From IMG/VR virus record IMGVR_UViG_2687453420_000002, positions 35,126-99,125 of that record: a DNA stretch of 64,000 nt. The stretch is one strand, 5' to 3'. The first letter of the stretch is position 1, and each line of letters starts with the position of its first letter. The DNA is from a virus (Duplodnaviria > Caudoviricetes). A program made the translations under genes and the position numbers. This document shows positions 1,700-63,195 of this stretch, piece after piece. The notes below the pieces were generated by a model. That model was not told where the DNA came from. It saw only the letters and a list, made by a program, of their open reading frames with translations, and did not search any database.

Positions 1700-2387
1700 T
1701 TGAATTCACCTCAGATTGCTGCTTCTTCTTTTCTCTACGTTTAGCAATCTCCTGAATAGCTGATTTCCAATCCTTAATTCCAGCCTTAGATTTTTCTTTA
1801 TCTAATCCTTCTAATTCTAAATAGTTTTTAACTAAACTTCTTAACTCTGATATAGCTCTACTTTGAGCATTAAGAAAAGTAGCCTGTCTATCCCATGCAA
1901 ATTGAAATTCATATTCTACTTCTTTTGATGAGCTTTTATCGCCCCATGAATCTTTTGTCTTTTTCAATTCCTTTATCATTTCTTCTTTTTCTGTTACATA
2001 CATAATTCTTTGAGATCTTACTATTGCTGCATACTGTATCATTATTTGATCCCATAATATATCTAAAGGTTTCTTAGTCTCTATTTCTTCCATTATCCCT
2101 AAAGTTTCCTCCGGTAAATACTTAGAGAAAAATCCATGTTTCTCCGCATTCTTATTCTTTGCTGGAGCTCCATGTCCTACTGCATTCTTATTATTTAAGG
2201 GTGCACCCTTTTTATTTTTGTGTGCACCCTTCTGTTTTTTCTCTTCTGACCAACCATATCTTTTCACCCAAGACTTAATTGTATTTAAACTAACTGAATA
2301 CTTTTTAGCTAAGTCTTTATATTTCATACCTTTAAGATAATCTTTCTTAGCCTGTTCTTTAGTATCTGGTCCTCTTATACTTTCCAT
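1692..2387 (-). CDS. terS: Terminase small subunit (phage A)
   Basis: N-terminal HTH ([14 protein letters not shown]), GAPxxNKNA repeats, upstream of terL. Confidence 0.88.
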
Positions 2388-2483
2388 ACCACCACCTCAT
2401 TGCTAGTTGCTTTGTTTGTTTTGTATATAAAAAAGAGCCCTTATGAGCTCTTTGTTAAATTAATATGTTTTACTACAATTTAA

Positions 2484-2723
2484 TTAATCAAAATCCCTAT
2501 CAACTTCAATTACCTGTCCTGTGTTAGCATTTATTTTTACTTCATAAATTCCAGCAGTGGTTCTAATGCTAACCTCGTAAACTAATATGCCATCTTCAAC
2601 ATCTAACTCAACTCTTACTACCTGTCCTGGAACCTGCTGTAGTGCAATTTGCACAGCTGCTTCACTACTAATGCGATAGCTTCTCCAGTATCCATCCCAT
2701 AAAGCATAATAATTAGGTATCAT
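2484..2723 (-). CDS. PepSY-domain small protein
   Basis: ISSEAAVQIAL...VYEV...EVKINANTGQVI; near-identical copy at 58969. Confidence 0.8.
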   Translation of the reverse strand: MIPNYYALWDGYWRSYRISSEAAVQIALQQVPGQVVRVELDVEDGILVYEVSIRTTAGIYEVKINANTGQVIEVDRDFD

Positions 2724-2838
2724 TATAAAATCATCTTCCTTTTCAATATTTACATGATTATTATATTCAATTATTTAAAGATTAGTGACTTTTAGCAATA
2801 TATACTTTTAAGTTATCTCCTTACTTAACACTCTTATT

Positions 2839-3048
2839 CTATTTTCCCCATGTTCTCTGCTTTATACTGCCACCCTTACCCCTACAATAACTATCATGGC
2901 TCATAAGATCCATAACATCAGAAAAGGAGAGGTCCTCTTTCTTACCTCTCCTAGATTTTTTCTTATTCTGCTTTCTATTTTTATTCAATTTCTTGTGCAT
3001 TCCTGGTTGTTGTATTTCTATTATTTTTCCTACCTTCAAACCTCTCAC
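2839..3048 (-). CDS. Basic conserved phage hypothetical protein
   Basis: Homolog at 59324. Confidence 0.65.
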   Translation of the reverse strand: MRGLKVGKIIEIQQPGMHKKLNKNRKQNKKKSRRGKKEDLSFSDVMDLMSHDSYCRGKGGSIKQRTWGK

Positions 3049-3099
3049 CTCTTATCTATGTAATATGAATATAATCTCCTAGGCTGTTTTAGGTATGTA

Positions 3100-3133
3100 A
3101 AAAGCACCTAAGGTTTATATTCCTTAAGTGCTC
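3100..3133 (-). terminator. Intrinsic terminator
   Basis: gcacctaagg/ccttaagtgc stem with A/T tail; same element at ~59580-59612. Confidence 0.65.
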
Positions 3134-3194
3134 ATACACAATATTATATTATCAATATTTTTCCTCTAAATATATTTATTTTAATATTTAGCGT

Positions 3195-3632
3195 TTATTC
3201 TAAAACTGTTGGTTTTATTTTCTCTTGTCCTCTTAATACCTGAAGTGCTTCTGCTACCTTTCTAGCAAAGTTTAAAGGTCTATCTATTGATTCAAAGTGA
3301 ATATACATAAGTCTTGGATCATCAAATAACCAATGATTATGAAGTGCAGTAACTAATATTCCATTTTCTCTTAAAATAGATATAAAATCATTTATTTCTT
3401 CTTGAAGAATAACTGTTTCACCTAAATTAAGAGTTCTACCTGCATTATCAGGAGCCTCAAATGAAAACATCGCCATTAAAGCTAATGGTGAATGAGTTCG
3501 TCTCCTCAATATTTCTGCATCAATATCTCTAATAAACATTACTGTACAAACATTATCAGCTGTACTTAGAATTTCAGCTCCAAGTATATCAGCAAACTTT
3601 GCACAGGTTCTACAAAAATCTCTCATAATCAT
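3195..3632 (-). CDS. DUF1259 (LppY/LpqO-like) protein, moron
   Basis: GETVILQEEIN and VTALHNHWLFDDPRLMYIH motifs. Confidence 0.8.
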   Translation of the reverse strand: MIMRDFCRTCAKFADILGAEILSTADNVCTVMFIRDIDAEILRRRTHSPLALMAMFSFEAPDNAGRTLNLGETVILQEEINDFISILRENGILVTALHNHWLFDDPRLMYIHFESIDRPLNFARKVAEALQVLRGQEKIKPTVLE

Positions 3633-3695
3633 TTCCTCCTATTTTTTTATCTTAAGCTTTTCAATATTATATAGATAGCTTGTCTCTATATAAAT

Positions 3696-3723
3696 ATAAT
3701 ATGAAACTTATTTATAAGCGTGC
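3696..3723 (-). promoter_or_regulatory. SigK-type promoter for the DUF1259 gene
   Basis: Minus strand AC-N16-CATATTAT fits the sigK consensus AC-N16-CATAnnnT. Confidence 0.6.
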
Positions 3724-4237
3724 ATAAATGTTATTTTATAGCTAAATAATAGGAGATTAAAAAACACCCAGAAATTAATCTAAGTGCTTTTTAGTACATA
3801 CACAATATATTATATTTTTTTATTTTAACCCCTAGTGATAAGCTAGGAATTATTGCTATCGTTCCCTTTTAAATGGCAGTTCTTTTCCATCTACTAAGTT
3901 ATCAGCTTAGATTTTTGCACTGTGGATAGCTCACACTTTAGATTATAATAAGATTCTTCTTAAAACATATATTGCATATCAGAAAACATAATTTATAAAC
4001 TCCATTCTTTTCATAAAAAAGTAATTTGTTTATTCCTTATATTTTGTACTAATACACAATATATTCTACTGTTCTTACAACTTGGTAAGTCAGCTTAATG
4101 TTATCAGCAAGTGCTTGTAGGCTAAGTCTTACCCATGCAATAACATTATCAATATTTCACTCCTCTTATGCTACCTACTGACACATAAGAATCATAGCTA
4201 CTATTTCTACTACTTTGTTATGGGCATTTATCCCCAT

Positions 4238-4322
4238 TGGCACCGGCGGAGGAATTGAACCTCATTCTCCAAGTCATGTTATCGCTAGCTTCTTGGTGCG
4301 TTACCATTACGCTACAACCGGC
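4238..4322 (-). tRNA. tRNA-like element with an 18-nt anticodon loop; identity not assignable
   Basis: Acceptor stem with 3' CCA, D arm GCGT-AATGGTA-ACGC, T arm GAGG-TTCAATT-CCTC, anticodon stem CCAAG/CTTGG. Confidence 0.75.
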
Positions 4323-4420
4323 ATAAATAGGAAGCACCCAAATTAATGGATGCTTTGCAGTTGCGCTTTATTTAATTTGTACGATAAAATCCTCTTTCTA
4401 TTATAACTTTCCTTAATACC

Positions 4421-4454
4421 ATAATAACACATATAATTCGGTATTTTCGGTGTA
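4421..4454 (-). promoter_or_regulatory. Putative late promoter of phage A
   Basis: TGtTATTAT extended -10 preceded by two CCGAA repeats at 9-bp period, directly after the activator gene. Confidence 0.55.
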
Positions 4455-4455
4455 A

Positions 4456-4956
4456 TTATAAATTATTTAAATATTTATCATGTATTTCTTTTCTAGGATA
4501 ACTTTCATGACATTTTCCGATTCTTATAGCTATTGCCTGCCAACTTAATCTATCAATATATCTATATTGAAACACTCTTCTTGTTTTTGAATCTGGAATA
4601 GTGTTTATGAATTCTTCTATCTGTAGTTTCATATCTTCACATTTATTTTTTCTTTTGCTTAATAGATTATTTAATTTAATTAATCTTTCTTCTTTTTTAT
4701 CTGCTTCCGGATAATTATACCCTTCAATAGTAAATTTTCTTTCTGTATAAGGAAAAACATTGCTAGATCCTTTAACACTGTCTTGTTCAATTTTAATCTT
4801 TTTATTCTCTAATTTCTCAATTCTATTTTCAAGTTCACTTATTTCTACTTTTAAATCATTGTATTGTTTTAATAAAAATGTAGTATCCTTCATGCTTGTC
4901 CTCCTACTCATAGAATCTATTTTTTCCCCACATTTTAGTGCGAGGCTTATTTTCAC
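4456..4956 (-). CDS. RinA/ArpU-like late transcriptional activator (true start probably MKDTT)
   Basis: Coiled coil plus C-terminal RRVFQYRYID.LSWQAIA HTH; upstream of the packaging operon. Confidence 0.75.
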   Translation of the reverse strand: MKISLALKCGEKIDSMSRRTSMKDTTFLLKQYNDLKVEISELENRIEKLENKKIKIEQDSVKGSSNVFPYTERKFTIEGYNYPEADKKEERLIKLNNLLSKRKNKCEDMKLQIEEFINTIPDSKTRRVFQYRYIDRLSWQAIAIRIGKCHESYPRKEIHDKYLNNL

Positions 4957-5122
4957 CTAATTTCCTAGCTAAGGCTGCTAATTCATTTAGCTTGTCTTTG
5001 TTGAATTCACCTAATAGGTTAGCAATCTGCATCATATCTGCATCAAATTTTCTAAATTTATTCTTCTGTTCTTCTGTTAATTTTAATCCAGCTAAATCAA
5101 ATTCATCTAACGTACCATTCAT
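4904..5122 (-). CDS. Hypothetical protein
   Basis: Coupled ORF; frameshifted homolog at ~61548-61772. Confidence 0.6.
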   Translation of the reverse strand: MNGTLDEFDLAGLKLTEEQKNKFRKFDADMMQIANLLGEFNKDKLNELAALARKLGENKPRTKMWGKNRFYE

Positions 5123-5310
5123 ACCGCCTTCACCTTCCTAATTTCTTTTCCTTTTAGGTTGTAGACTATTCCATGTTGAAAATCTATCTTTGCTTTTATT
5201 CTTTTTCTGCCTCTCTTTAAAATGCATGGATAAGTTATTGTATAATTTTCCTCAAATAGCTTTAGTTCCCCATTAAAGTACTTGTCCAATTTATTTCTCC
5301 ATGCTTCCAT
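5119..5310 (-). CDS. Hypothetical protein
   Basis: RBS; homolog at 61769. Confidence 0.7.
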   Translation of the reverse strand: MEAWRNKLDKYFNGELKLFEENYTITYPCILKRGRKRIKAKIDFQHGIVYNLKGKEIRKVKAV

Positions 5311-5399
5311 GATTAATCCCTCCTTTGTATTATTGTTTTAATACTCTAGTACAGTTAAGGTGCAGAAATGCATAGTTTAATCCCTACACCTATTTAGTT

Positions 5400-5626
5400 T
5401 TAAAACTGTCTTTTCCAAATAACTCTTATATTCTTATATTTTTCTTGTAGTTTTTCAAATAATTCAGTTACTTGTAATCCAGTATTTCTCCATTACAGAA
5501 CCAAACTCCATACTCACTATCTTTACTAGGCTTTCTATATCTTAATTGGAGCTTTTTATCATCACATTGTAAGTTAACATTGCAATGTGTCATTAGCACT
5601 AAATAAACATTATCTCTTTTCGCCAC
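5400..5626 (-). pseudogene. Small hypothetical gene with a 1-bp frameshift
   Basis: RBS then GTG MAKRDNVYL...; adding one A near 5486 extends the frame to ...IRVIWKRQF. Confidence 0.5.
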
Positions 5627-5702
5627 TATTTTCCCTCCTTACTTTTAACCCCTAATACTCTTTTTCTGCTTTCTCTATTTCTTTTGCAAGTTCTGGATTA
5701 TT

Positions 5703-6698
5703 TTAAGATATTTTCTTATATTCATGTTTTATGTTTTCTTCTGATAATTCTGCATATATCTGTGTAGTCGCAGGATTTTCATGCCCCATAAGATGTTGTA
5801 TAACCGGCAATGGCATACCTGCATTTAGTTTGCTGGTAGCAAAAGAATGTCTAAATAAATGAGGATAAATAGATTTGTTTATGCCTGCTCTATCCGCAAT
5901 TTTTTTAATCTCTCTTTGAACACTTCTACCACCCAATCTATTATGTGGACTTTTTGAAGTAACAAATAATGCTTCATTATTATCTTTTCTTCTATTTAAA
6001 TATTTTTTCAAATATATTTTGGTTTTAATATTAAAATAAACCTTGCGTTCTTTATCACCCTTACCTATTACATTTAAAGACATTTCATACCAGTTTATGT
6101 CATCTTTATTTACTCCAACCACCTCTGATAATCTGCACCCAGTAGATATTAAAAATTCTACTAGTGCCTTTTCTCTATCTGTTTTAGAAGCCTGCCTTAA
6201 AAGTTCTACTTCCTCTTCTGTCATAGCATGTCTTAATCTCTTTGGTTCTTTAGTTTGTTTTAGCTTCTTTGCTGGATTTTTAGGTATATACTCTTCATCT
6301 GCAAGCCAACCAAAGAAACTTTTTAGTATAGAGATTTGTCCATTTACACTAGTTGCTCTCATGTTCTTGCATCTAACCGCTAAGAACATTCTTAAATCCA
6401 TAGTAGTAATAGTTCCCAGTGGTTTTCTTAAGTGATCTGCAAATATTGCTAAATTATATTGATAGTTTTTTAATGTTTTTAAGCTTAAGCCATCCAGCTT
6501 CTTAGATGCTAAGTATATTTGTAATTTTTCTTCTATATCACTTGTTACTAGACCTGTCTCCTCTGGCAATACACGGTATTTATACAATACTTCTTCTGCT
6601 ATAGTTCTAACCTTCCGCTGGTCTATTTCTGGAAATTCTAAAGATAGCTTGCCCACTAATTTAATTACAACTTCTTCTTTACTACTTGAACTGTACAT
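5703..6698 (-). CDS. XerC/D-like tyrosine recombinase (phage A)
   Basis: Catalytic residues present: TGCRLSE, GKGDK, HLFRH, MGH, TTQIY. Confidence 0.93.
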   Translation of the reverse strand: MYSSSSKEEVVIKLVGKLSLEFPEIDQRKVRTIAEEVLYKYRVLPEETGLVTSDIEEKLQIYLASKKLDGLSLKTLKNYQYNLAIFADHLRKPLGTITTMDLRMFLAVRCKNMRATSVNGQISILKSFFGWLADEEYIPKNPAKKLKQTKEPKRLRHAMTEEEVELLRQASKTDREKALVEFLISTGCRLSEVVGVNKDDINWYEMSLNVIGKGDKERKVYFNIKTKIYLKKYLNRRKDNNEALFVTSKSPHNRLGGRSVQREIKKIADRAGINKSIYPHLFRHSFATSKLNAGMPLPVIQHLMGHENPATTQIYAELSEENIKHEYKKIS

Positions 6699-6805
6699 AT
6701 AAATACCTCCTTGTATATTGCCATTAAGTCCAGTTTAATTTTTATTTATATCCTGGATCTAATCTTTATTTCTGGACCTTATATTTGCAACGCGATATTA
6801 AAAAC

Positions 6806-6982
6806 TTAATCTTCTAATATAAAACATATAGGATCACCATGTTTATGTTTAACATCACTAGGGCAAATCAAAGCTTTCCTATTTACTATTCCTTCATTTA
6901 TAAATTCAATAGTTTTCTTTTTATATGGACATGTATATCTTCCATTTTTAAGCTCCATATATTTGCAAATGTACTTTAGCAT
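6806..6982 (-). CDS. 58-aa hypothetical protein (not in ORF track)
   Basis: AAGGAGG RBS; MLKYICKYMELKNGRYTCPY... Confidence 0.6.
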   Translation of the reverse strand: MLKYICKYMELKNGRYTCPYKKKTIEFINEGIVNRKALICPSDVKHKHGDPICFILED

Positions 6983-7013
6983 AAATTCCTCCTTAATATC
7001 TTTGAATTGCCAA

Positions 7014-7829
7014 CTAAACCATTCTTTCTTCTGACTTTTTATATATTTGTTTTACTTCTGATTTAGGTATTTTCACATAATGTTTTCTAAATAACATTTT
7101 TTCTTCTTCATCTTCTGGCTCATAAATATCAAAATTTTTACCTCTGACTTTTTGCTTATGCATAGTGTAAAAATCACCTTTATCAGCATAACCTTCTAAT
7201 GGATTTTCATTTCTATCATCCCAACTATGATCAAATTCAACTATTTCTCCATCATTGAATTCCATATACCATTTATGGAGTGTATGTTTAAATTTTCTTA
7301 TTTCACATTGAATTAAAGAGTTATAGTCCTTAAAATATTCTTCTGTATAGCCATAATACAATCTACAAAGGCTATCACAATATCTAATCCACATTTCATT
7401 ATCACCAAAATTAGGCATCCAATATTCTTCAACATTTGGATTAAACCCTGGAACTTCACCATCAATAGAATATTTTAAATACATTTTTAAAATATATCTT
7501 GATTTATCTGCACAACATGCCGAACCTTCTCTTAATTCACATAAATTTCTTATATGATTTTCTAAGAAACTATAATTTACATAAATAAAATTAGGTTTAT
7601 TTTTATCTTTACAAATAGATGGTTCATGCAATGTACTTGCTAATAGTTTCATACCTTTTTTCAATCTATAATTGATAAAGCAATCAAAATATTCAGGATT
7701 GTTTATTTTAACCTTACTTTCTTTTGCATGATTAATCGCTTCTCCAAATATATTTATTGTTTCCTCTTCCGATTTTGCGTTTAATGCATCAAATAAACTT
7801 GTAAGGCATTTAGTCATTTCAGTATCCAT
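7014..7829 (-). CDS. Hypothetical protein
   Basis: 271-aa ORF with RBS; no family recognised. Confidence 0.75.
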   Translation of the reverse strand: MDTEMTKCLTSLFDALNAKSEEETINIFGEAINHAKESKVKINNPEYFDCFINYRLKKGMKLLASTLHEPSICKDKNKPNFIYVNYSFLENHIRNLCELREGSACCADKSRYILKMYLKYSIDGEVPGFNPNVEEYWMPNFGDNEMWIRYCDSLCRLYYGYTEEYFKDYNSLIQCEIRKFKHTLHKWYMEFNDGEIVEFDHSWDDRNENPLEGYADKGDFYTMHKQKVRGKNFDIYEPEDEEEKMLFRKHYVKIPKSEVKQIYKKSEERMV

Positions 7830-7884
7830 AATTTCACTCCTTCACATTAATTTCAGCTCCTGCGGCTGCTCTTTGAATTGTGAC

Positions 7885-8100
7885 TTATTTAGTGATGACA
7901 ACATCTAATCCAATACTGACAACACTCTTTATTATGTTATTAATGTTTTTATCTATATTATCAACATTCATAGTGATTTCGTCTAATACTTCATTATCTT
8001 TCAAATTATTTTCTTGCCCTACTGCATTGAATAATTCTTGTGCATCTTTTTTATTTAGTTGTAAACTGCTAAAGTCTATTAATATTTTCATTTTCTCCAT
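7885..8100 (-). CDS. Hypothetical protein
   Basis: AGGAGG RBS; 71 aa. Confidence 0.6.
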   Translation of the reverse strand: MEKMKILIDFSSLQLNKKDAQELFNAVGQENNLKDNEVLDEITMNVDNIDKNINNIIKSVVSIGLDVVITK

Positions 8101-8146
8101 CCTCCTAATGCTTTGTACTTATTTCTGAATTACGTCATATTGCAAT

Positions 8147-8953
8147 TTAAACTATAGATAACTGTTCACATTCAGCTTTATTTTTTATTAGCATTTGCTC
8201 TTGCGCTTTTTTATAAAATTCTTTAGATACTTCAAATCCGTAACTACTTCTATTTAGTTCCATACAAGCCCTTAATGTACTTCCACTCCCTGCCACGGGG
8301 TCTATTACAACATCCCCTTCATCAGTAAAAATTTCTATAAGTTGCTTTAATAAAGCTATTGGTTTTTGTGTAGGATGAACTTTTGGATATTCTTTTTTAC
8401 TATCGCGTTTCCACTCAAACCAATTAAAAATCATTTTCCCTTTTCCTGTTTCTTTTTTACCATTGTTAAACTTAGGTAATTTATCTCTATATAATACGAC
8501 TGCATGTTCCGTAGCTCCAACTATTTTCATATTTGCCTTTAATACCTGTGCTGAATAATTTTTAATAAAGAATAATGGATAACTGTTTTTAAACCCATGC
8601 TTTTTACCATATTCAATAACTGTAGGAATTTGTTCAAAAGAACAAAATACAATCATAGCAGGTGCTTTTCCTCTTTCTTTTGGCTCTTTTATTAATAATC
8701 TGTTACAAAAATGAAAGTATTCAGCTATGTTAAAATTCTCATCTGTATTAAAGAATGTCTTTCCAGCTTTCTTACTTTCTCCATTCTTGTTATTTCCTCC
8801 TATATACCATTCTGGATTACTTCCATATGCATTCTTTCCTATGTTGTATGGAATATCTGCTATTACTAATTGTGCTTTTGGAATATTGTATCTTTTATAG
8901 TTTTGAAAATTATCATTATATAATTCTGTTTTAATTTTTTTATTATTTTCCAT
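8147..8953 (-). CDS. DNA N6-adenine/N4-cytosine methyltransferase (beta order)
   Basis: DIPY catalytic motif, HPTQKP, DPVAGSGST SAM-binding motif. Confidence 0.9.
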   Translation of the reverse strand: MENNKKIKTELYNDNFQNYKRYNIPKAQLVIADIPYNIGKNAYGSNPEWYIGGNNKNGESKKAGKTFFNTDENFNIAEYFHFCNRLLIKEPKERGKAPAMIVFCSFEQIPTVIEYGKKHGFKNSYPLFFIKNYSAQVLKANMKIVGATEHAVVLYRDKLPKFNNGKKETGKGKMIFNWFEWKRDSKKEYPKVHPTQKPIALLKQLIEIFTDEGDVVIDPVAGSGSTLRACMELNRSSYGFEVSKEFYKKAQEQMLIKNKAECEQLSIV

Positions 8954-9212
8954 TGTTCTTGTTCCTCCTCGTCAGGAGGCACGGCCGTGCTTTTTATCTA
9001 GAATTACTCCATTTTATTTTTTAAAATTTAGTTCGTCCAATTTTCATTCTTAGACCTATTTTTGAAATACGGCTATTGAATTTTCTAAATCATCTTTGCT
9101 TATTTTTGATATATTAATTACTGTCCTATATTTTTGTATATAATTTGTTAAATGACTATATTTATTGAATAAAAAAGCATCCAGTGCAAACAATATAAAA
9201 GGGTGATAAATT

Positions 9213-9365
9213 ATGATAGTATCTTTTAAAAGAAATCTAGGAAATACTGATAGAACAGTAAGAATAATATTAGGTTCATTGCTTTTAGTAGAAGGAATAC
9301 TTGGTTACTGAATTATTTTAGATATGCTAGGTTGGTCAACCTATAAATCTGAAAATAAAGGTTAA
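9213..9365 (+). CDS. DUF2892/YgaP-like small membrane protein, probable selenoprotein (TGA at 9309-9311)
   Basis: KRNLGNTDRTVRIILG...GILGY[TGA]IILDMLGWST; TGA at the family's conserved Cys; SECIS-like hairpin follows. Confidence 0.65.
9313..9358 (+). promoter_or_regulatory. Bacterial SECIS-like stem-loop
   Basis: TAGGTT-GGTC-AACCTA on lower stem TTATTTTAGAT/ATCT(G)AAAATAA; loop starts 22 nt after the TGA. Confidence 0.6.
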
Positions 9366-9586
9366 ATAATCGTCCATTTCTAGTATTTTTTATTAAGCAA
9401 TTTTTGTTATCCAAGCACTATCTCTAATGTATTTGTTAGTGTATAACCATGAACACCAATAAATGTAAAACAAATTTATTTGCTAACATCACATTATTCA
9501 AATTTCAAAGAACATTATCCTTATCTGCATTTTCAAGAGTTACGTCGCTTTAATTTCAAATTATCCCTCCAATATTAGTATTTCTA

Positions 9587-9739
9587 TTATTCTTCTCTAT
9601 CGCTTAAACACTCTTCACAAAACCCAAGATGCTCAAGATAACAATCTTTACAAAGCGTTACCTCGCATATATCACAACTAAATTGGTCATACACTGCTAA
9701 TGTATTATCAATTTCTTTTCCACAATCCCAACAAATCAT
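9587..9739 (-). CDS. 50-aa Cys-rich zinc-finger-like protein (not in ORF track)
   Basis: GGAGG RBS; four CxxC motifs (CWDC, CDIC, CKDC, CEEC). Confidence 0.65.
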   Translation of the reverse strand: MICWDCGKEIDNTLAVYDQFSCDICEVTLCKDCYLEHLGFCEECLSDREE

Positions 9740-9896
9740 CTTTATACCTCCAATATTTCAACTTTTCAATTATATTTAACTGTTCTTTCATTTCCTTTAT
9801 TAATTCTTTTACAATATCTTTTTTATTTAATTCAGCATAAGTCTGAATGTTCTCTGCTAATAACTTTAAAGATTCAAAATCCTCTTTATATAACAT
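9708..9896 (-). CDS. Hypothetical protein
   Basis: RBS; 3' end overlaps the next gene, possibly frameshifted. Confidence 0.5.
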   Translation of the reverse strand: MLYKEDFESLKLLAENIQTYAELNKKDIVKELIKEMKEQLNIIEKLKYWRYKDDLLGLWKRN

Positions 9897-9929
9897 TTAT
9901 TTACTTCCCTTTCCTGTTTGGAATGTGAC

Positions 9930-10097
9930 TTAATTCAATATTGCTTCTAATTCTTCTTTTAATATTCCCTTTAGCTCGTCAGATTCCTGTATCATATTTT
10001 CAAGTAAAGTTATCTTTTGCAACATATCTCTTTTTTTGTAATATAACTCACATGAATCTTCCTTTAATTCATTTATTATCTGTTCAACAATATTCAT
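9930..10097 (-). CDS. 55-aa coiled-coil hypothetical protein (not in ORF track)
   Basis: AAGGAG RBS; MNIVEQIINELKE... Confidence 0.55.
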   Translation of the reverse strand: MNIVEQIINELKEDSCELYYKKRDMLQKITLLENMIQESDELKGILKEELEAILN

Positions 10098-10130
10098 ATA
10101 TGATATTCACTCCTTCGCCTTAATTTCATA

Positions 10131-10535
10131 TTAATCCCTTACCAACTCTGGGGTTTCATATATATTTCCTTTTACTCTTAAGTAGTTGCATTCTCCCCAA
10201 AGGCTTTTAGCTCTGCACTCTTCCTCGTTATCTACCCATCATGCACCCTCATGAAAAACTACCACTCCGTCTAATGGCTCTTCATTACTAATTAACATGT
10301 TTTCAATATGAACTATATCTCCCTCAAAGATTTCTTTTCCATTTCTATCCTTTACACCTGTAGAAAATATAGGCTTTATATGTTTTGAGTATTCTGTTCC
10401 TTCCCATTCAACACAATCATTCTCCTCTGATTCATGGTAAATTAATTGTGAAACCTCTCCATTACAACCAATTGCAAAGCTTGAAGTATTTTCATACATG
10501 ATCTTGTTTTTCATGTCCCAAAATTTTATATTCAT
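10131..10535 (-). pseudogene. YopX-family protein interrupted by an in-frame TGA (10239-10241)
   Basis: STGVKDRNGKEIFEGDIV motif; frame continues to the typical VKGNIYETPELV end. Confidence 0.8.
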
Positions 10536-10801
10536 ATGCTCCCCTCCATACATTCAATTTTTTCTTGCAACTCTTTTAATCTATTCATTTTTTCCTCATA
10601 AGCTTGAGTTTCTTCTTGGATTTTTTTATTGATAACAGAATTAATACATACTAAAAACTTTTTAGATGGCTGTTTACCTTCTTCTATATTCTTAAATGCA
10701 TTGTGGATCCCTTGCTTTGTATATCCAGTTAACTTTTCAATTTCTACACCCTTTAAACCAATCTCTTTTCTAAAATCAGAATAGCTTTTCACTCTCGCCA
10801 C
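10532..10801 (-). CDS. HTH-like protein
   Basis: EIEKLTGYTKQGIH followed by a coiled coil. Confidence 0.6.
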   Translation of the reverse strand: MARVKSYSDFRKEIGLKGVEIEKLTGYTKQGIHNAFKNIEEGKQPSKKFLVCINSVINKKIQEETQAYEEKMNRLKELQEKIECMEGSI

Positions 10802-10888
10802 CTTCTTTTACCCTTTTAATTTATTCTGTAATTTCTTTTTACGTTTTTGTTTATTTTAGTCAATTATTTGTGTCGTATAAATTTCAAA

Positions 10889-11236
10889 TTACGTATTCTT
10901 AAGCTCTACACGCTCCCATGTAAGAAAGCTTCTATACGCTTCAAGTTCTAACCTCAAATTTCTCATAGCTTCTATGCATACACTATAGTTAGTTTCTGCT
11001 ATGTCTCTATTTAATCTTAATTTTGCAATCTCTTCTTTCCCTTTTGCTAAATCATTTATTAGTGTTGCTGGCTGTTTCTCTAACTGTCTTAATCTTAAAA
11101 TTTCTTTTCTAAGAGCTACTTTATAGTCATACTCTGCTGCAGCTTTCTTTACTCCTAGAGTTTTTAATTCTGTATTACCTCTAGTTAATGCTTGCTGACA
11201 TACTCCTATCTTTTTCATTATTTCAACTGGTGTCAT
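10889..11236 (-). CDS. Conserved phage coiled-coil protein
   Basis: RBS; operon context. Confidence 0.7.
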   Translation of the reverse strand: MTPVEIMKKIGVCQQALTRGNTELKTLGVKKAAAEYDYKVALRKEILRLRQLEKQPATLINDLAKGKEEIAKLRLNRDIAETNYSVCIEAMRNLRLELEAYRSFLTWERVELKNT

Positions 11237-11260
11237 ATTATCCTCCTTATAATCAATGTG

Positions 11261-11662
11261 CTAAACTTCTTCTAAAACAAGCTCTACTCTTGATTCTTCT
11301 CCATACCATTTTTCAATCCAGCAATCTACTATTTGTTTATCATCATCATAAGCAATAGCATTTAAGCTATCTAAGATTATTTTGGCTATATTATCCACAT
11401 CAGGCTTCTTAGTAGGTCTTATATTACCTTTTATCATTTCTTCTCTTTTCTTCTTACTAATACTTTTAGGTATTGAATAAAAAACTTTCATATCTGCTCT
11501 TATTGGGCCTTCTAATCTTTTTTTATCCTTAGTTAATAGATAACATTCCTTTACCCAATTCTCATACTCTATTGTCTTTTTAGGTGTATATGCTACACCA
11601 GTTTTAGTACTCATTCTTGGTCTAGCTTTACCTTTTGGTTCTCCTGGTATAATTATTTTCAA
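11261..11662 (-). CDS. rusA: RusA-family Holliday junction resolvase
   Basis: GKARPR and KKPDVDNIAKIILDSLN.IAYDDDKQI. Confidence 0.9.
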   Translation of the reverse strand: MKIIIPGEPKGKARPRMSTKTGVAYTPKKTIEYENWVKECYLLTKDKKRLEGPIRADMKVFYSIPKSISKKKREEMIKGNIRPTKKPDVDNIAKIILDSLNAIAYDDDKQIVDCWIEKWYGEESRVELVLEEV

Positions 11663-14136: not shown

Positions 14137-15132
14137 CTACATTACCTCTTTTAATGCTTTAAGTTCTTTTATAAAATCATCAATTTCGTTAGCATTTAAG
14201 ACTAAATTAGTTGTACCAGTAATGTTCTTTATAGAAAAACTATTTTCTTGAACTCTATATTCCATTACCTTGCCTCTTAAAACTAAAGGCTGTAATATCT
14301 TATTTGGTTTTGAAGCTTCTTTTATGCCTTTATTATTTTCTTTATTTGAACTATTTCTAGTTTCAGCAGATTTTATATTATTCAATTTATTTTTAATACC
14401 ATATCTTCTTAAATAACTATTTATGGTGCTTTCTGCTAAACCATATTTTCTACTTATTGCTACTATAGCTTCTTTCCCGATTCCAAGCATTTTAGCTTCT
14501 TTCATAAGCTGTTCCTTAGTTATCTTAGGCTCTTTTGTGAACATCTCATTTTCCCCCTCATATTTATTTTTAATGGTATTAGGTATCTTTTTGAGAATTC
14601 TACTTATATAACTTTGTTTTAACCCTATTTCTTCTCCTATCTGTTTTTGAGTTTTATTATTAAAATAGAACTCTTTAATAATTTTCTTATCTCTTTCATT
14701 TAAATTTTCTATTATTGCAGCTATTTCTTTGCACGTTACATTAAAAATACTTCTATCTTCATAATTTGTTTTATCTGATATTAGATCTATTAAACTTAAA
14801 TTTTCATTATCTTGTTTTTGATTCAATATAGGTTTATCTAAACTATCTACATCTAAATGCTTTTCTTCTTTTCTGTTAAATATTCTTAATTCATTATTTA
14901 CTACAGCTGCTAAGTATGTCATGAATAAAATATTTTTATCAGCATTATAAGCTGTGAATGCTTTAGTCATACCTAAAAAAGCTACTTGAAATAAATCTTC
15001 TTGTTCGAATTTACGTTTCCATGACTGTATCAACTTATATAAGAATTTTTCAAACTTAAAATAAACTTCTTCTAAACTCATTAATTTCAAGCCTTCATCT
15101 TTGGTGAGAATTAATTTTTTCTCAGCCACCAT
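14137..15132 (-). CDS. Sporulation-like sigma-70 factor with C-terminal extension
   Basis: Region 2 EDLFQVAFLGMTKA...FMTY; region 4 KTQKQIGEEIGLKQSYISRI. Confidence 0.85.
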   Translation of the reverse strand: MVAEKKLILTKDEGLKLMSLEEVYFKFEKFLYKLIQSWKRKFEQEDLFQVAFLGMTKAFTAYNADKNILFMTYLAAVVNNELRIFNRKEEKHLDVDSLDKPILNQKQDNENLSLIDLISDKTNYEDRSIFNVTCKEIAAIIENLNERDKKIIKEFYFNNKTQKQIGEEIGLKQSYISRILKKIPNTIKNKYEGENEMFTKEPKITKEQLMKEAKMLGIGKEAIVAISRKYGLAESTINSYLRRYGIKNKLNNIKSAETRNSSNKENNKGIKEASKPNKILQPLVLRGKVMEYRVQENSFSIKNITGTTNLVLNANEIDDFIKELKALKEVM

Positions 15133-18320: not shown

Positions 18321-19177
18321 CTATACCTCCTGGTCTTGTAGGAATGGTGGTAAATCTTCTTCTTTTGTTTCTGGTGTATCTTCTTTTTTACTTAATCCTT
18401 TATCTACTAATATTTTGCAAGCTTTTTGTATTACCTGGTCTTTAGCATTTTTCATAAGCCAATCTATATAGTTAGGAGTTTCTTTCATTATCTGGCCTAA
18501 AGTTTTGCCTTTATTTTTACCAAAATTTATTTTAATGTTCCCAGCACTATTTTCATCAATATTTTGTACATGCTCTTGTTGTAAAAACTCTTGCATTTCT
18601 TCTAGGTCCTGTGTAAATACATCACTTAAACTTGCTACTTGTAATACTGCATCTATAAATGCTCTTTTCTTAGCCATCTTTAAAATAGTATTTACTAAAT
18701 CAGCTATATGTGGGTTTGGTATTTTATATTTAACTGTTCCATACCTAGTAGTTATTTTTCTACCGTACTAGGATCTATTCCATCTGGTACTGCATCAACA
18801 TTTATATATCTATATTTCTTTTCCATACTGTTACAATTCCCCACACCTTGGCTTACTGGATTGCCATTTCTATATAGAGTACATTTTATGTTATAAGCAA
18901 AGAACCCATCTTTGTAATCCTCTGTTCTTTCTAAAAACTCATATTCAGGATTAAGACCAAACATCATGCAAATCTTTTCTCCACCTGGCTTTAAAAGTGT
19001 TGGTTTGCTCCCTGCTCCTGCAACTACTCCAAAATCATGGCCATCTTTTAAATTCTTTTGAATTACTGCTTGAAATGTTGCTATTTTTTGCATAGTACCT
19101 TGTATAGTTCCTATATCTACACTATCTATAAGGCTAGTAACTTGATTATTTTTAACTATTTCTAATTGATTTTCCAT
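18321..19177 (-). pseudogene. Putative recombination (ssDNA-annealing-like) protein split by a 1-bp deletion near 18757
   Basis: KPTLLKPGGEKI...; one added A joins it to NTILKMAKKRAFIDA...FGKNKGKTL..YIDWL. Confidence 0.7.
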
Positions 19178-22861: not shown

Positions 22862-23113
22862 ATGAAGCATAAAATAAATGTCGAAGAATATAGAAATAAA
22901 AATTTTATAAGTCAGAATAAACTTGCTAAAAAAATTAATATTAGCCAAAGTTATCTTTCTTCTGTAGAAAGAGAAATAAAAAGTCCTACATTGAGAATGT
23001 TGTATCGTATTGCAGAAGAATTAGATGTTTGCCCTCGATTGCTAATTAAATGTACAATAGAATGTAGTGAATGTAAAAAACAATACAAATGTATTTGTGA
23101 GGGGGAAGACTAA
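22862..23113 (+). CDS. XRE HTH protein with Cys-rich tail, coupled to the integrase
   Basis: SQNKLAKKINISQSYLSSVE; stop overlaps the integrase ATG. Confidence 0.8.
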   Translation: MKHKINVEEYRNKNFISQNKLAKKINISQSYLSSVEREIKSPTLRMLYRIAEELDVCPRLLIKCTIECSECKKQYKCICEGED

Positions 23114-24732
23114 TGAAGGCAGGAATTTACAGCAGAAAATCAATGTTCACAGGTAAAGGTGACTCTGTAGAAAATCAAGTCCAAATGTGTAAAGATTATG
23201 GAAACAGATTAAATGTAGATGAATATTTAATATATGAGGATGAAGGGTATTCAGGAGGTAATATTAATAGGCCTAAATTTCAAGAGTTATTACAAGATGT
23301 TAAAAAGAAAAAGTTTGACGTGCTTATATGTTATAGATTAGACCGTATAAGTAGAAATGTAGCAGACTTCTCTTCTACTCTTGAACTACTTCAAGACAAT
23401 AATATAAGTTTTGTAAGCATAAAAGAACAGTTTGATACTTCTACACCGATGGGTAAAGCTATGGTTTATATAGCTTCTGTTTTTGCACAGTTAGAACGTG
23501 AAACCATTGCTGAACGTGTAAGAGATAATATGTTAGAACTCGCTAAATCTGGAAGATGGTTAGGTGGTCAAACTCCTTTAGGATTTGAATCTGAAAAAAT
23601 ATCTTATTTTGATGCAGAAATGAAAGAAAGAACTATGTATAAACTTTCTCCTGAACCTAAAGAACTAGAATTAGTTAAATTAATTTATAATAAATACTTA
23701 GAAACTGGATCTATACACCTAACATTAAAATATTTATTATCTAATAATATAAAAGGTAAAAATGGTGGAGAATTTGCATCCATGTCTATAAATGATATAT
23801 TAAGGAATCCTGTATATGCTAAATCTAATGAAATGGTACTTAATTATCTTGAAGATAAAGGCATGAATATATGTGGTACCGCTAATGGAAATGGTATCTT
23901 AATATATAACAAAAGAAACTCTAAGTATAAGAAAAAAAGTGTAAATGAGTGGATAGCTGCAGTTAGTAAACACAAAGGAATTATACCTGCTAATACATGG
24001 CTAGAAGTTCAAAAAACTCTAGATAAAAATTCTAAAAAAGATACTCCAAGACAAGGAACATCTAAAAAGGCATTATTATCTGGAGTTTTAAAATGCAGTA
24101 GATGCGGTGCTCCTATGCGAGTTACTTATGGCAGGAAAAGAAAAGATGGCACTTCCATATATTATTATACATGTACTATGAAAGCTCATAGTGGCAAAAC
24201 TAGGTGTGATAATCCTAATGTACGCGGGGACTATTTAGAAAAAAACATTATTACAGAATTAAAAAACTTAAATTCTGATGTAGTCATTAAAGGGCTTGAA
24301 GAACATAAAAAACAACTAGCTGCAACAACAGAAAATTCAATTATAAAAAATATTTCTAAAGAAATAGAAGAAAAAAAGAAAGAAATGGATTCTTTGATTA
24401 ATAAACTTTCTAAAATAGAAAGTGATATAGCATCTGAATTTGTATTATCTAAAGTAGATTCTTTAGGAAAAGAAATTAAAGAATTGGAAGTTAATTTATT
24501 AAAAAGAACCGATAAGAAAAAAGAAAACTGTGATATTGAACTTAATATTGAAATAGTGTTGCAAGCAATAAAAGAATTTAATGATTTTTTCAATAGTGTT
24601 GAGAGTTTTAAAGATGATGAATTAACTATACAAAGGAAAAGATATCTTCTTGAAAGAGCTGTAGATGAAATTAGAATAGATGGAGAAACTAATAGAATAG
24701 ATATTGATTTATGGAGGGCTAAAAAAAAATAG
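23113..24732 (+). CDS. Large serine integrase
   Basis: YSRKS catalytic Ser, YRLDRISR, recombinase domain, zinc ribbon CSRCG...YYYTC, coiled coil. Confidence 0.95.
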   Translation: MKAGIYSRKSMFTGKGDSVENQVQMCKDYGNRLNVDEYLIYEDEGYSGGNINRPKFQELLQDVKKKKFDVLICYRLDRISRNVADFSSTLELLQDNNISFVSIKEQFDTSTPMGKAMVYIASVFAQLERETIAERVRDNMLELAKSGRWLGGQTPLGFESEKISYFDAEMKERTMYKLSPEPKELELVKLIYNKYLETGSIHLTLKYLLSNNIKGKNGGEFASMSINDILRNPVYAKSNEMVLNYLEDKGMNICGTANGNGILIYNKRNSKYKKKSVNEWIAAVSKHKGIIPANTWLEVQKTLDKNSKKDTPRQGTSKKALLSGVLKCSRCGAPMRVTYGRKRKDGTSIYYYTCTMKAHSGKTRCDNPNVRGDYLEKNIITELKNLNSDVVIKGLEEHKKQLAATTENSIIKNISKEIEEKKKEMDSLINKLSKIESDIASEFVLSKVDSLGKEIKELEVNLLKRTDKKKENCDIELNIEIVLQAIKEFNDFFNSVESFKDDELTIQRKRYLLERAVDEIRIDGETNRIDIDLWRAKKK

Positions 24733-57205: not shown

Positions 57206-58094
57206 TCTTCCATACCTCAGCAGCTCTGCCATTTAGTGCATCTAAGAATCCATCATCTTCAACCTCGGTTTCATCACCATTAACTTTTGATTTTTCTAAT
57301 TCTAGTTTTTCTCTAGCTTGTTTAACTTTTTCATCTTCTATCTTTCTCTTAAATTTATCAGGGAATAAGTCAAAGTATTGAGATAGCTTATCTAGGGCTT
57401 TCATCCTATCCTCAAATTTAATAGATACTCCATCTTTACCTTGCTTTACTTCATTTATTATTGTGCCATCTACTATATTACTTTCTTTAAAGTCAACATA
57501 GTTTACTACCTTAGTAAGTTCATTACCTTCTTCATCTTTAACAGGCCCAAATGCCCATGCCCCCATAACAGTAACTTCCTTTTGCCCAAATGTTAGGTAA
57601 TCTGTTATATCTGCAAATGCTATCTTTATATACTTATTCAATACATCCATAGCATCTATAAATATTTCTTCTGTCATTTTTCCTTTGAGCTCTCTAATAT
57701 AAGCTTTTACCTTAACATTTCTTAGCAGTCTACTACCTTCTACATGAGCACTATCTGGAGCATACCCTGCCTTAATAGCTGATTGAGTAGCATTAAAGCT
57801 TTTTATATAGTAAATACAAAAGAGCCTTTGCTTATCAGTAAGTTCAGTATTTTCTAATACCTCTTTTACTTCTTCAACAATAGGCTCCTGTACACTTTTT
57901 TCTTTATTCTGTTTTTGTGTGCATACTTTGTTCTTTGTGTGCATACTTTTTCTATTCCATTTATACCTTTGCTTCCAACTCTTAACTGTATTAATAGATA
58001 CATCATACTTAGATGCTATATCTTTATACTTCATTCCAGATATATAATCTCTTTCTGCCTGTTCTTTTGTATCTGGTCCTCTTATATTTTCCAT
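57198..58094 (-). CDS. terS: Terminase small subunit (phage B)
   Basis: N-terminal HTH plus [24 protein letters not shown]. Confidence 0.9.
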
Positions 58095-58096
58095 AC

Positions 58097-58783: not shown

Positions 58784-58968
58784 ATAATTGCCTCCTAAGT
58801 TTTAAATAGGAGGATAGTGGGGTATCATCACGACATGCCAATCCTCTAAAAAACACATAAAAAAAGACACCTTTTACAGTGTCTTAATTAATCTATTTGT
58901 TTGTTTTGTATATAAAAAAGAGCCCTTATGAGCTCTTTTTTAAATTAATATGTTTTGTTACAATTTAA

Positions 58969-59232: not shown

Positions 59233-59323
59233 TATTTACATGATTATTATATTCAATTATTTAAAGATTAGTGACCTTTAGCAATGTATACTCTTAAGTT
59301 ATCTCTTTCTTAACACTCTTATT

Positions 59324-59536: not shown

Positions 59537-59625
59537 CTATGTATATGAATATAATCTCCTGGACTAATCCAGGTATGTAAAAAGCACCTAAGGCTTATAT
59601 TCCTTAAGTGCTCTTTGATATTTAA

Positions 59626-61081: not shown

Positions 61082-61083
61082 AA

Positions 61084-62051: not shown

Positions 62052-63047
62052 TTAAGATATTTTTTTATATTCATGTTTTATATTTTCTTCTGATAATTCT
62101 GCATATATCTGTGTGGTCGCCGGATTGTCATGACCCATGAGATGTTGTATAACTGGCAATGGCATACCTGCATTTAGTTTGCTAGTAGCAAAAGAATGTC
62201 TAAATAAATGAGGGTAAATAGATTTGTTTATGCCTGCTCTCTCCGCGATTTTTTTAATTTCTCTTTGAATACTTCTTCCACCTAACCTTGCATAAGATGT
62301 TCTAGATGTAACAAACAGTGCTTCATTATTATCTTTTCTTCTATTTAAATATTTTTTCAAATATATTTTAGTTTTAATATTAAAATAAACTTTACGTTCT
62401 TTATCACCCTTACCTATTACATTTAAAGACATTTCATTCCAATTTATATCATCTTTATTTACTCCAACCACCTCTGATAATCTGCACCCAGTAGATATCA
62501 GAAATTCCACTAGTGCCTTTTCTCTATCTGTTTTAGAAGCCTGCCTTAAAAGTTCTACTTCCTCTTCTGTCATAGCATGTCTTAATCGTTTGGGTTCTTT
62601 AGTTTGTTTTAGCTTCTTCGCTGGATTTTTAGGTATATACTCTTCATCTGCAAGCCAACCAAAGAAACTTTTTAATATAGAGATTTGTCCATTAACACTG
62701 CTTTGTTTCATGCTTTTGCATCTAACTGCTAAAAACATTCTTAGATCCATTGTATTTATAGCTACTATAGGTTTTCTTAAGTGACTTGCAAATATCAAAA
62801 GGTTATATTCATAATTCTTTAATGTCTTTTTACTAAGCCCATCCAGCTTTTTAGATGCCAGATATATCTGTAATTTTTCCTCTATATCGCTACTTACAAG
62901 AGCCGTCTCCTCTGGCAATATACTGTATTTATATAACACTTCCTCTGCTATACTTCTAACTTTTAATTGATCTATGTCTGGAAACTCTAAAGATAATTTT
63001 CCAACCAGTTTAATTACAACTTCTTCTTTACTGCTTGAACTATACAT
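62052..63047 (-). CDS. XerC/D-like tyrosine recombinase (phage B)
   Basis: Same catalytic motifs as, and close homolog of, 5703-6698. Confidence 0.93.
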   Translation of the reverse strand: MYSSSSKEEVVIKLVGKLSLEFPDIDQLKVRSIAEEVLYKYSILPEETALVSSDIEEKLQIYLASKKLDGLSKKTLKNYEYNLLIFASHLRKPIVAINTMDLRMFLAVRCKSMKQSSVNGQISILKSFFGWLADEEYIPKNPAKKLKQTKEPKRLRHAMTEEEVELLRQASKTDREKALVEFLISTGCRLSEVVGVNKDDINWNEMSLNVIGKGDKERKVYFNIKTKIYLKKYLNRRKDNNEALFVTSRTSYARLGGRSIQREIKKIAERAGINKSIYPHLFRHSFATSKLNAGMPLPVIQHLMGHDNPATTQIYAELSEENIKHEYKKIS

Positions 63048-63195
63048 ATAAATACCTCCTTGTATATTGCCATTAAAGGCAGTTTAGTTTTTATTTATAT
63101 CCTGGATCTAATTTTTGAAATACAACGTAAAAAATTATAAAATTGGCTTTTGAAGTAGTACGGTAGTTTAATAAATTATTTCCACTTTCTTTTTA

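Follow-up and report, generated by a model that had tools for sequence, protein, structure and literature searches.

We found that a short sequence motif, made up of a stop codon, a gap of 2-4 nt and then RYAATTCAAA, always on the coding strand, punctuates the accessory genes of related Clostridium prophages. The motif is real, used on one strand, tied to stop codons and confined to this region, and it appears from comparison of sequences to mark points where single genes swap between phages. We lean towards the motif being a conserved boundary sequence for general or short-homology recombination, like the PeSLs of T4-type phages or the boundary sequences of lambdoid phages.

The DNA analysed (64,000 nucleotides, hereafter the window) comes from a record that carries two such prophages, A and B; the host group of these prophages is the Clostridium sporogenes/botulinum group. 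In phage A the array occupies an accessory hyperplastic region on the minus strand, between the replication/RusA genes and the late-gene regulators. The features of this region are as follows.

5703..6698, minus strand: intact 331-aa Xer-like tyrosine recombinase, phage A (Pfam Phage_integrase and a SAM-like N-terminal domain; NF040815)
6699..6767, minus strand: conserved recombinase leader; identity between phages A and B stops at 6767
6784..6796, minus strand: weak motif copy ATCGCGTTGCAAA at the end of the 58-aa cassette; 6784-7000 is missing or replaced in an X1 contig, where 6783 adjoins 7001
6806..6982, minus strand: cassette ORF, 58 aa, no family (ORF list and domain search)
7001..7013, minus strand: motif copy right behind the stop codon of the 271-aa gene; the same gene end has six differing continuations (window and five loci)
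7014..7829, minus strand: cassette ORF, 271 aa, phrog_32020 (unknown function); 100% identical copies with other neighbours in L126 and L127
7830-7871, minus strand: 'long form' leader after the 7872 motif copy, which it adjoins
7872..7884, minus strand: motif copy right behind the stop codon of the 71-aa ORF (pattern match)
7885..8100, minus strand: cassette ORF, 71 aa; in X1 contigs similarity is lost at 7883 and back at 8120
8124..8136, minus strand: motif copy 10 nt past the methylase stop codon (pattern match)
8147..8953, minus strand: cassette ORF, N6/N4 DNA methyltransferase, 268 aa (Pfam PF01555); 98.5% identical in L126
9061..9073, minus strand: motif copy over the last codons of ORF 9056-9193; X1 contig similarity begins at 9061
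9534..9546, minus strand: weak motif copy GACGTAACTCTTG; contig similarity stops nearby, at 9516-9529 and 9562-9564 (X1, X2, X4)
9917..9929, minus strand: motif copy right behind the stop codon of the 55-aa ORF 9930-10097 (ORF list and pattern match)
10239..10801, minus strand: two array ORFs without motif, YopX-like (104 aa) and 89 aa (ORF list and domain search)
10883..10895, minus strand: weak copy TACGTAATTTGAA over the stop of the final conserved early gene, where the variable region begins; X1 joints at 10881 and 10883
10889..11236, minus strand: last conserved gene before the array, phrog_1389 (profile match)
11261-11662: RusA, preceding the phrog_1389 gene (profile match)

All five strong copies proposed in the sequence-only reading were located on the minus strand: TTGGCAATTCAAA, GTCACAATTCAAA, GACGTAATTCAGA, GCCGTATTTCAAA and GTCACATTCCAAA at 7001-7013, 7872-7884, 8124-8136, 9061-9073 and 9917-9929, respectively. 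As that reading had it, three begin right after a stop codon (ORFs 7014-7829, 7885-8100 and 9930-10097), and the 9061 copy overlaps the end of ORF 9056-9193. Its weak copies at 6784, 9534 and 10883 are poor motif matches; similarity to run X1 breaks at or near each.

Within the window, RYAWTYCARA matched 20 times against 12.2 expected (at least 20 in 2 of 100 shuffles), and nine of these matches lie inside 5692-9926, every one on the minus strand. The pattern GNNRYAWTYCARA, derived post hoc from the motif copies themselves, occurred 8 times against 1.64 expected, a count reached in none of 100 shuffles. The family consensus TCRYAATTCAAAKA, allowing up to 2 mismatches, was not enriched across the whole window (8 versus 10.9 expected). 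The window by itself is thus weak, at best modest, evidence for the motif; it is the comparison with relatives that establishes it as real.

The comparison covered about 50 related Clostridium prophage loci. The strict pattern TAR-N2-4-RYAATTCAAA had 44 unique sense sites versus 2 antisense in 746 kb of close relatives, and 16 versus 0 in 10 cassette-anchored loci without the recombinase; in distant relatives the counts were 4 and 4. A shufflon, in which Rci acts on inverted sfx sites to yield inversions, does not fit, as the copies are all direct by the first of these counts. Motif density in close relatives was about 14-fold that of the host genome, and a 4.3-Mb C. sporogenes genome held no motif excess (20 + 17 matches versus 21 + 16 for the reversed control). 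The motif could have proved equally frequent elsewhere in the phages, but it marked 43 of 269 unique gene ends within 3 kb upstream of the recombinase versus 15 of 980 in the remaining ±10 kb.

The anchor of the motif is the stop codon. A stop closing a frame of at least 40 codons precedes 69 of the 134 unique core sites, with a gap of 2-4 nt in 61 of these 69; spacing to the next start codon is loose (quartiles 19 and 78 nt). The motif is found at this fixed distance behind unrelated genes, is kept in phages of other Clostridium species and is retained in phages whose replication modules are unrelated. A motif without function, inherited along with related cassettes or arising by chance in AT-rich DNA, would fit the unenriched consensus and the post hoc pattern of the window. 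This reading is, however, already disfavoured, and we regard it as highly improbable, given the strand bias, the density relative to the host, the fixed distance from the stops of unrelated genes and the persistence across Clostridium species.

We compared homologous gene ends among the loci, and the breakpoints fell at the motif, as the sequence-only reading had anticipated. Pairs diverged no more than 40 nt after the stop in 46 of 50 cases with the motif versus 353 of 1045 without it, counts that are not independent, since related phages share history, and that come from a motif sitting in the most variable region anyway. When only the variable 3 kb were considered, breaks were seen in 58/66 pairs with the motif versus 224/572 without, and 14 of 18 gene families with the motif broke in every pair versus 14 of 48 without.

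Individual cassettes show the same behaviour. The 271-aa gene, 87-100% identical among its copies, is followed by six different downstream sequences that split directly after AATTCAAA, and two further cassettes have the same pattern of changing neighbours. In L016 a tandem duplicate (copies 95.8% identical) has its boundary at the motif end. In the run X1 contigs, from a related prophage, gene-sized pieces bounded by motif copies are missing or replaced; as read from these assembled contigs, similarity is lost or regained around the weak copies (6783; 9518 and 9562; 10881 and 10883). Turnover looks fast, with 100% identical genes in three different contexts. The crossover window spans about 8 nt (TTCAAA plus 1-2 nt), the last part of the motif.

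These observations are consistent with an exchange unit that would comprise a single ORF with its stop codon, a leader with ribosome-binding site ahead of it and the motif behind it. Related phages would swap, lose, gain and duplicate such units through crossover in the last ~8 nt of the motif. The crossovers may be made by general recombination, of phage or host, that tolerates very short homology or, alternatively, by microhomology-dependent illegitimate recombination whose products are retained by selection. The motif may also serve gene expression, as a putative signal at the end of the mRNA or ORF, and would be kept for that reason. Against this explanation stands the shared sequence, whose 10-15 nt (35-45 nt for the 'long form') are few for efficient homologous recombination, whereas turnover looks fast.

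Two known systems resemble a boundary sequence of this kind. In PMC2839356 (Arbiol et al. 2010) and PMC4122927 (Comeau et al. 2014), the PeSLs (promoter-early stem-loops) of T4-type phages are described as repeats between small non-essential ORFs, with exchange attributed to recombination between them. A repeated intergenic element, a hyperplastic region and indels or replacements ending at the element are all present here too. Unlike PeSLs, which combine a promoter with a terminator stem-loop, the motif is 13-15 nt long, unstructured, not promoter-like and tied to the upstream stop. The lambdoid boundary sequences, as cited in PMC3029335 (its references 21 and 22), are short, lie at module junctions and were proposed as homologous crossover points that make mosaics. 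They share with the motif a short sequence common to the junctions of otherwise unrelated modules; here, in contrast, a single motif follows many genes in a row, using one strand and a fixed spacing from the stop, and is a demonstrable joint hot spot.

The sequence-only reading had instead proposed an integron-like system, in which the motif is the target of the Xer-like recombinase and cassettes are excised, inserted or shuffled by it. The enzyme might act in cis, or a co-resident prophage might supply it in trans. Part of this stands: the array is cassette-like, built of co-oriented single-gene units that each end in a site and are gained or lost, the joints fall at the site, and the ~8-nt crossover window has the size of a tyrosine-recombinase overlap region. 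A tyrosine recombinase adjoins the array in many members, and the arrays of close relatives end within 3 kb upstream of it. The phrog_1029 protein served as anchor for 20 close relatives. At least one site is present in 15 of the 16 that bear the recombinase; in the four full-length loci that lack it, core sites from the anchor gene to the late genes number 2, 1, 0 and 0 (L069 has one additional core site in the late region). The recombinase is also intact, as had been claimed: its catalytic residues (R, K, HxxR, H, Y) match XerD (1a0p) in the alignment.

What is not supported is the role of the enzyme, which proved Xer-like and is missing from complete array-bearing records. Its Xer family membership follows from these residues and from passing NF040815 (235.2 bits versus a cut-off of 220); it does not reach the thresholds of the XerC and XerD equivalog models. 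An integron integrase was rejected (TIGR02249, 94.5 bits versus 265, with the match spanning only the C-terminal part; NF011946, 51 versus 435). In integrons the integrase gene is divergent from the array, with attI and the cassette promoter beside it, and attC sites are folded imperfect palindromes with inverted R boxes. Here there is no IntI, the recombinase is dispensable, and its gene lies downstream of the array and co-oriented with it; in one phage group two genes and a terminator-like hairpin lie between the two. No attI/Pc arrangement was present beside the array. The site lacks an inverted second arm and a fold: the short form folds at 0 kcal/mol with no inverted partner, no stable fold of the motif was found (z-scores -1.8 to +1.3; six long forms, -1.3 to +1.0), and an apparent right arm is seen in a minority of sites only. 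Integrons have also been reported in phages (PMC9892861).

The distribution of the recombinase further separates it from the arrays. The array-bearing records G001, G008 and G010 are 100% complete (CheckV) and have no recombinase homologue at E ≤ 1e-5; G003, also 100% complete, has only a 23%-identical integrase and G009 only a 26%-identical match. No orthologue was found in the nine whole array-bearing records searched. Of the 22 cassette-anchored loci that extend 5 kb or more downstream, 12 lack the recombinase, as do 6 of 7 in the first set. Conversely, among the 12 non-redundant loci whose orthologue is 61-82% identical (L034-L036, L038, L045-L047, L049-L052 and L055), 8 have no motif-ended gene upstream, and 45%-identical homologues sit elsewhere, between tail genes and holin, in phages with ParM or a serine integrase. 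In L081 the array and recombinase were deleted together through a 3-nt microhomology, cutting into an ORF. The integron reading is thus supported only in part; we consider such a system very doubtful, and the neighbouring recombinase does not appear to run the array.

Most likely the Xer-like recombinase has another job, for example multimer resolution of the circular phage genome. In phages and plasmid prophages that have other means of maintenance, Xer-family recombinases are believed to be dimer resolvers (PMC8026635). Like those enzymes, this one is a single Xer-like recombinase beside another means of maintenance, here a serine integrase; unlike a plasmid prophage, this phage integrates. 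No dif-like site, with two arms around a 6-8 bp spacer, was identified. Inverted repeats of suitable geometry occur (for example, 5563-5589 and 2451-2492), none of them conserved with the recombinase gene; phage B lacks 5403-5696. A leader element, AGATCCAGGATATAAATAAAA..., precedes the recombinase in many loci and is similar to the 'long form' leader.

Phage B offers a joint that speaks for a role of the recombinase. The features concerned are as follows.

62052..63047, minus strand: phage B recombinase (92% identity to the phage A enzyme)
63114..63126, minus strand: motif-like sequence GTTGTATTTCAAA, on the chromosomal side of the chromosome/phage B joint (63112-63116)

Identity between the phages stops at 6767 (A) and 63116 (B), and chromosomal DNA ending in a 10-nt core match meets the phage 66 nt before the start codon of the recombinase gene. 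The copy that had been noticed where phage B identity ends is real, but it is on the chromosome's side of the joint; another genome's stretch without phage genes has the same sequence, motif included, beside the SDR gene (97% identity, ending at window 63112). A second copy claimed at 63149 matches none of the patterns used. Phage B is the sole locus of 51 with upstream DNA mostly on the opposite strand. A joint at a motif-like chromosomal sequence is also what an integrase site would look like. In addition, cells can hold several such prophages, two in this record, so action of the recombinase in trans is possible.

Another dedicated factor could be at work: host Xer, a nuclease or some other recombinase that turns the motif into a recombination hot spot. 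Alternatively, a regulator that binds DNA or RNA might read it, as a stoperator or RNA-processing signal, with recombination a by-product. One-strand use and stop-codon anchoring fit a signal read on one strand, the joint is very sharp for a motif too short for ordinary homologous recombination, and phages whose replication modules are unrelated share the motif. The stoperators of Cluster A mycobacteriophages (PMC3029335) are likewise about 13 bp, asymmetric, intergenic and in one orientation relative to transcription. They are, however, genome-wide and include early-promoter operators, whereas the motif is confined to ~3 kb and no copy is present in the operator region of phage A (repressor to early genes).

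Neither an RNA family (Rfam) nor a structure was found for the motif. No motif copy was among the predicted sigma-70-type promoters or terminators (promoter-like sites in the region, 35 versus 39.2 expected), and there was no excess of pairing with the spacer that separates the ribosome-binding site from the start codon. No candidate protein co-occurred with the arrays; several array loci are without the phage sigma factor, phrog_1029, RusA and phrog_1389. We hold such a factor to be possible but unlikely. The boundary-sequence reading has its own difficulties here, as no function for the motif emerged and, among 10 early proteins of phage A scanned, no single-strand annealing recombinase was recognised (a Mu Gam-like protein and RusA were present).

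A more specific proposal, in which a dedicated, strand-specific system exchanges cassettes among Clostridium prophages with the motif as its core site, would place the enzyme in trans (a co-resident Xer-like recombinase, host Xer or an unrecognised nuclease), and seems to us quite improbable. If true, it would be a functional analogue of the integron with an unstructured, ~13-nt site tied to the stop codon, and accessory genes would move singly, far faster than homology-driven exchange permits. On the boundary-sequence reading that we favour, the motif, which is present also in phages without the recombinase, marks the points at which single genes are swapped in these prophages.

The final 64 kb of the 99-kb provirus record hold two related Clostridium prophages, A and B, in tandem, with almost all genes on the minus strand. 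In phage A the repressor is followed by Ant, a Mu Gam-like protein, DnaD/DnaB, a phage sigma factor, a pyrophosphatase, phrog_997, phrog_1029, RusA and phrog_1389.

Features around the array and the two recombinase genes
23113-24732, plus strand: large serine integrase, start of phage A, followed by the repressor
11261-11662: RusA, upstream of the array in phage A
10889-11236: phrog_1389, between RusA and the array region in phage A
6699-10895: array region in question, phage A, between phrog_1389 and the tyrosine recombinase
5703-6698: tyrosine recombinase A, followed by the late regulator and terminase
4456-4956: late regulator phrog_36, phage A, followed by terminase
62052-63047: recombinase B, first gene of phage B, 92% identical to recombinase A

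In phage B the recombinase is followed by terminase, head, tail and lysis genes, ending at a 794-aa gene (25429-27813), and its likeness to phage A is limited to 57919-63116 (2201-6767 in A). The gene pattern of the phage B end is repeated where the record begins, over 36 kb. Phage B (25429-63116) has late, lysis and accessory genes, and lacks the integrase, repressor, replication genes and array. In addition, the record begins partway through the 794-aa gene of phage A. The pair therefore resembles a tandem in which one member is truncated. Among the early genes of phage A, the sigma factor (14137-15132, minus strand; 331 aa; phrog_351, E 2.7e-32) is found in only some ten related loci. Two neighbouring minus-strand ORFs, 18321-18677 and 18752-19177, correspond to the two halves of one PHROG family, phrog_10048, C-terminal and N-terminal respectively (profile positions 142-250 and 1-134); they may be a split or frameshifted gene.

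The sequence-only reading described five strong copies of a 13-bp motif upstream of recombinase A. All five are present (7001-7013, 7872-7884, 8124-8136, 9061-9073 and 9917-9929), three of them beginning on the base after a stop codon. Inside the window alone the motif statistics are modest. RYAWTYCARA has 20 matches against 12.2 expected, nine of the 20 inside 5692-9926; the original 13-mer pattern, which was derived from the copies themselves, gives 8 against 1.6; and the family consensus, with two mismatches allowed, is found 8 times against 10.9 expected.

The comparison drew on 51 loci from viral and genome collections, each encoding a recombinase orthologue (61-92% identity). In many of these the same element lies immediately upstream of the recombinase, and the gene preceding this element varies by locus. 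Across 53 oriented sequences, 1.01 Mb in total, the 10-nt core has 102 intergenic sense-strand occurrences in 88 unique contexts, a typical site being TAA or TAG, 2-4 nt, then RYAATTCAAA. When a gene end was scored as carrying the core if it lay within 22 nt of the stop codon, 43 of 269 unique gene ends scored within 3 kb upstream of the recombinase versus 15 of 980 elsewhere within ±10 kb. Of 134 unique core sites in the 3-kb zone, 69 follow the stop codon of a frame of at least 40 codons, at a gap of 2-4 nt in 61 cases; the distance to the downstream start codon is loose. Being anchored to the upstream stop codon, the motif moves together with the preceding gene. The strict pattern gave 44 unique sense versus 2 antisense sites in close relatives (746 kb), and 4 sense versus 4 antisense in distant ones (742 kb). 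L130, a 79.5-kb record of a different Clostridium element, has 10 sense and no antisense motif sites over 11 kb, beside the partition protein phrog_691.

Breakpoints between related loci coincide with the motif. The same gene ends run into different sequences right after ...AATTCAAA, and, conversely, identical downstream units are preceded by different genes. Sequence breaks within 40 nt of the stop codon in 46 of 50 homologous gene-end pairs with the motif versus 353 of 1045 without it, and within the variable 3 kb only in 58 of 66 versus 224 of 572, the pairs not being independent events. The gene for a 271-aa protein (7014-7829) is 87-100% identical in five further loci and, the window included, has six different following sequences; two further cassettes, picked from other loci, behave in the same way. 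In one relative (L016) a unit is duplicated in tandem with its boundary at the motif. Contigs of a related prophage in sequencing run X1, in which 48% of sampled words are present, join 6783 to 7001 and lose similarity at 7883 to regain it at 8120, with intervening letters possible at both places; in the same contigs, 34 nt containing the motif-like ATTCAGAA stand in place of 9519-10880. Shared and unshared letters place the crossover window in the last ~8 nt of the motif. We have little doubt that the motif is real and marks joints, and the proposal that the array is cassette-like is supported. In the interval from the weak copy at 6784 to the leader of the recombinase (6767-6800), two tandem copies of the post-motif element are seen (TATAAGGTCCAGAAATAAAG, then ATTAGATCCAGGATATAAAT), which may be a scar of cassette loss.

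How the units are exchanged is a separate matter. We lean, by a small measure, towards a boundary motif at which general or short-homology recombination would exchange the units as the whole explanation, and we file the motif, as a variant, with the conserved boundary sequences and the PeSL-type shuffling elements (promoter-early stem-loops of T4-type phages). A dedicated enzyme acting on the motif is a possible alternative, because the shared sequence is so short.

The enzyme originally proposed was the neighbouring recombinase, in an integron-like arrangement. Recombinase A is intact. It is an Xer-like enzyme whose closest relatives are XerA, XerC and XerD, and it is not an integron integrase. 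Nor is its link to the array supported, as arrays occur in complete records without an orthologue and orthologue loci occur without an array; several results of both kinds argue against the recombinase running the array. None of nine whole records searched (L130 left out) has an orthologue: G001, G008 and G010, rated 100% complete, gave no recombinase hits, and G003 (100%) and G009 (87%) gave only integrase-like matches of 23-26% identity. Loci sampled through cassettes, several of them from one record, had the array without the recombinase in 6 of 7 cases, and in a second set in 12 of 22 with at least 5 kb downstream. When close relatives were sampled by way of the phrog_1029 protein, the recombinase was present in 16 of 20. 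Four that lack it, all full-length loci, have 2, 1, 0 and 0 core sites from the anchor gene to the late genes, one of them (L069) with one more in the late region; another of the four, L081, has lost window 10884-5568 by a deletion that lies at a 3-nt microhomology and cuts into an ORF. Conversely, among 12 non-redundant loci whose orthologue is 61-82% identical, 8 lack a motif-ended gene upstream of it.

Homologues of 45% identity lie between tail genes and holin, in one phage with ParM and one with a serine integrase. In phages of this kind, dimer resolution is the role ascribed to Xer-like enzymes (PMC8026635). No tRNA gene was found next to the recombinase; in L045 and L047 tRNAs lie 8.5-9.6 kb upstream, so that the recombinase is internal there. 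Downstream, 115-140 nt from the recombinase stop codon, ORF 5468-5626 contains a 10-nt inverted repeat (5563-5589) whose arms are 7 nt apart; the L081 deletion ends at its edge, and phage B lacks the piece 5403-5696. In one group of loci (L016, L021, L023-L024, L027-L031, L042 and L045-L047) a terminator-like GC hairpin (AAAAAGAGAGCT...AGCTCTCTT) precedes the recombinase, a second hairpin, GAGATA...TATCTC, lies just before its ribosome-binding site, and a 349-aa gene and a small gene separate it from the array.

Other functions of the motif were considered and rejected. A promoter for the phage sigma factor fails because only a minority of the loci with an array have the gene for this factor, and its presence shows no correspondence with motif copy number. 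No motif copy was among the detected sigma-70 promoters or intrinsic terminators, for which the region is at shuffle expectation, and positions 5000-11500 gave no Rfam match at E ≤ 1. No consistent attC-like RNA or DNA hairpin was found; the seeming right arm, TGAAATTA..., lies in the spacer that separates the ribosome-binding site from the start codon, in start regions that are real or vestigial. Pairing between the motif and this spacer of the next gene showed no excess (e.g. GAAAT, 3/63 versus 49/741). Neither is it a general host signal, as no excess was seen in one C. sporogenes genome (37 matches; reversed control, 37).

The left end of phage B is unusual, being the only one of the 51 loci with upstream DNA mostly on the opposite strand. 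Past 63112 the DNA has a counterpart, at 97% identity, in a C. botulinum ATCC 25763 contig, flanked there by an SDR gene and DUF3862-type genes; the motif-like GTATTTCAAA is already present in that contig, followed by unrelated sequence. Chromosomal DNA ending in a chance motif match is thus joined to the recombinase B leader. This is read most simply as a deletion that ran from the chromosome into a tandem prophage and ended at the motif; a joint made by the recombinase at a secondary site is also possible, the other flank falling beyond the record. A scan of viral contigs found the same joint in no other record.

Phage mosaicism is usually put down to random illegitimate recombination followed by selection. 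To our knowledge there are few clear cases of a specific short sequence directing the joints, namely PeSLs in T4-like phages and boundary sequences in lambdoid phages. Motif-string and topic searches, whose scope excluded supplementary files, a possible source of such motifs, found no published description of this one. Among deposited phages no close relatives of the region were found, the methylase cassette alone giving matches; this methyltransferase cassette (8147-8953) is 65-73% identical in DNA to methylase genes of Streptococcus, Lactococcus, Bacillus, Fusobacterium and Campylobacter phages.

The initial observation is thus confirmed and considerably extended: temperate phages of the C. 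sporogenes/botulinum group have single-gene swappable modules delimited by a 13-15-nt, one-strand motif tied to the stop codon, found across phages with unrelated replication modules. They offer a test case of whether ~10 nt of identity is enough for so much exchange or an enzyme is involved. The motif is also a simple marker for listing the accessory genes of these phages, and the genes so listed, which include a methyltransferase and many of no known function, may be counter-defence candidates.
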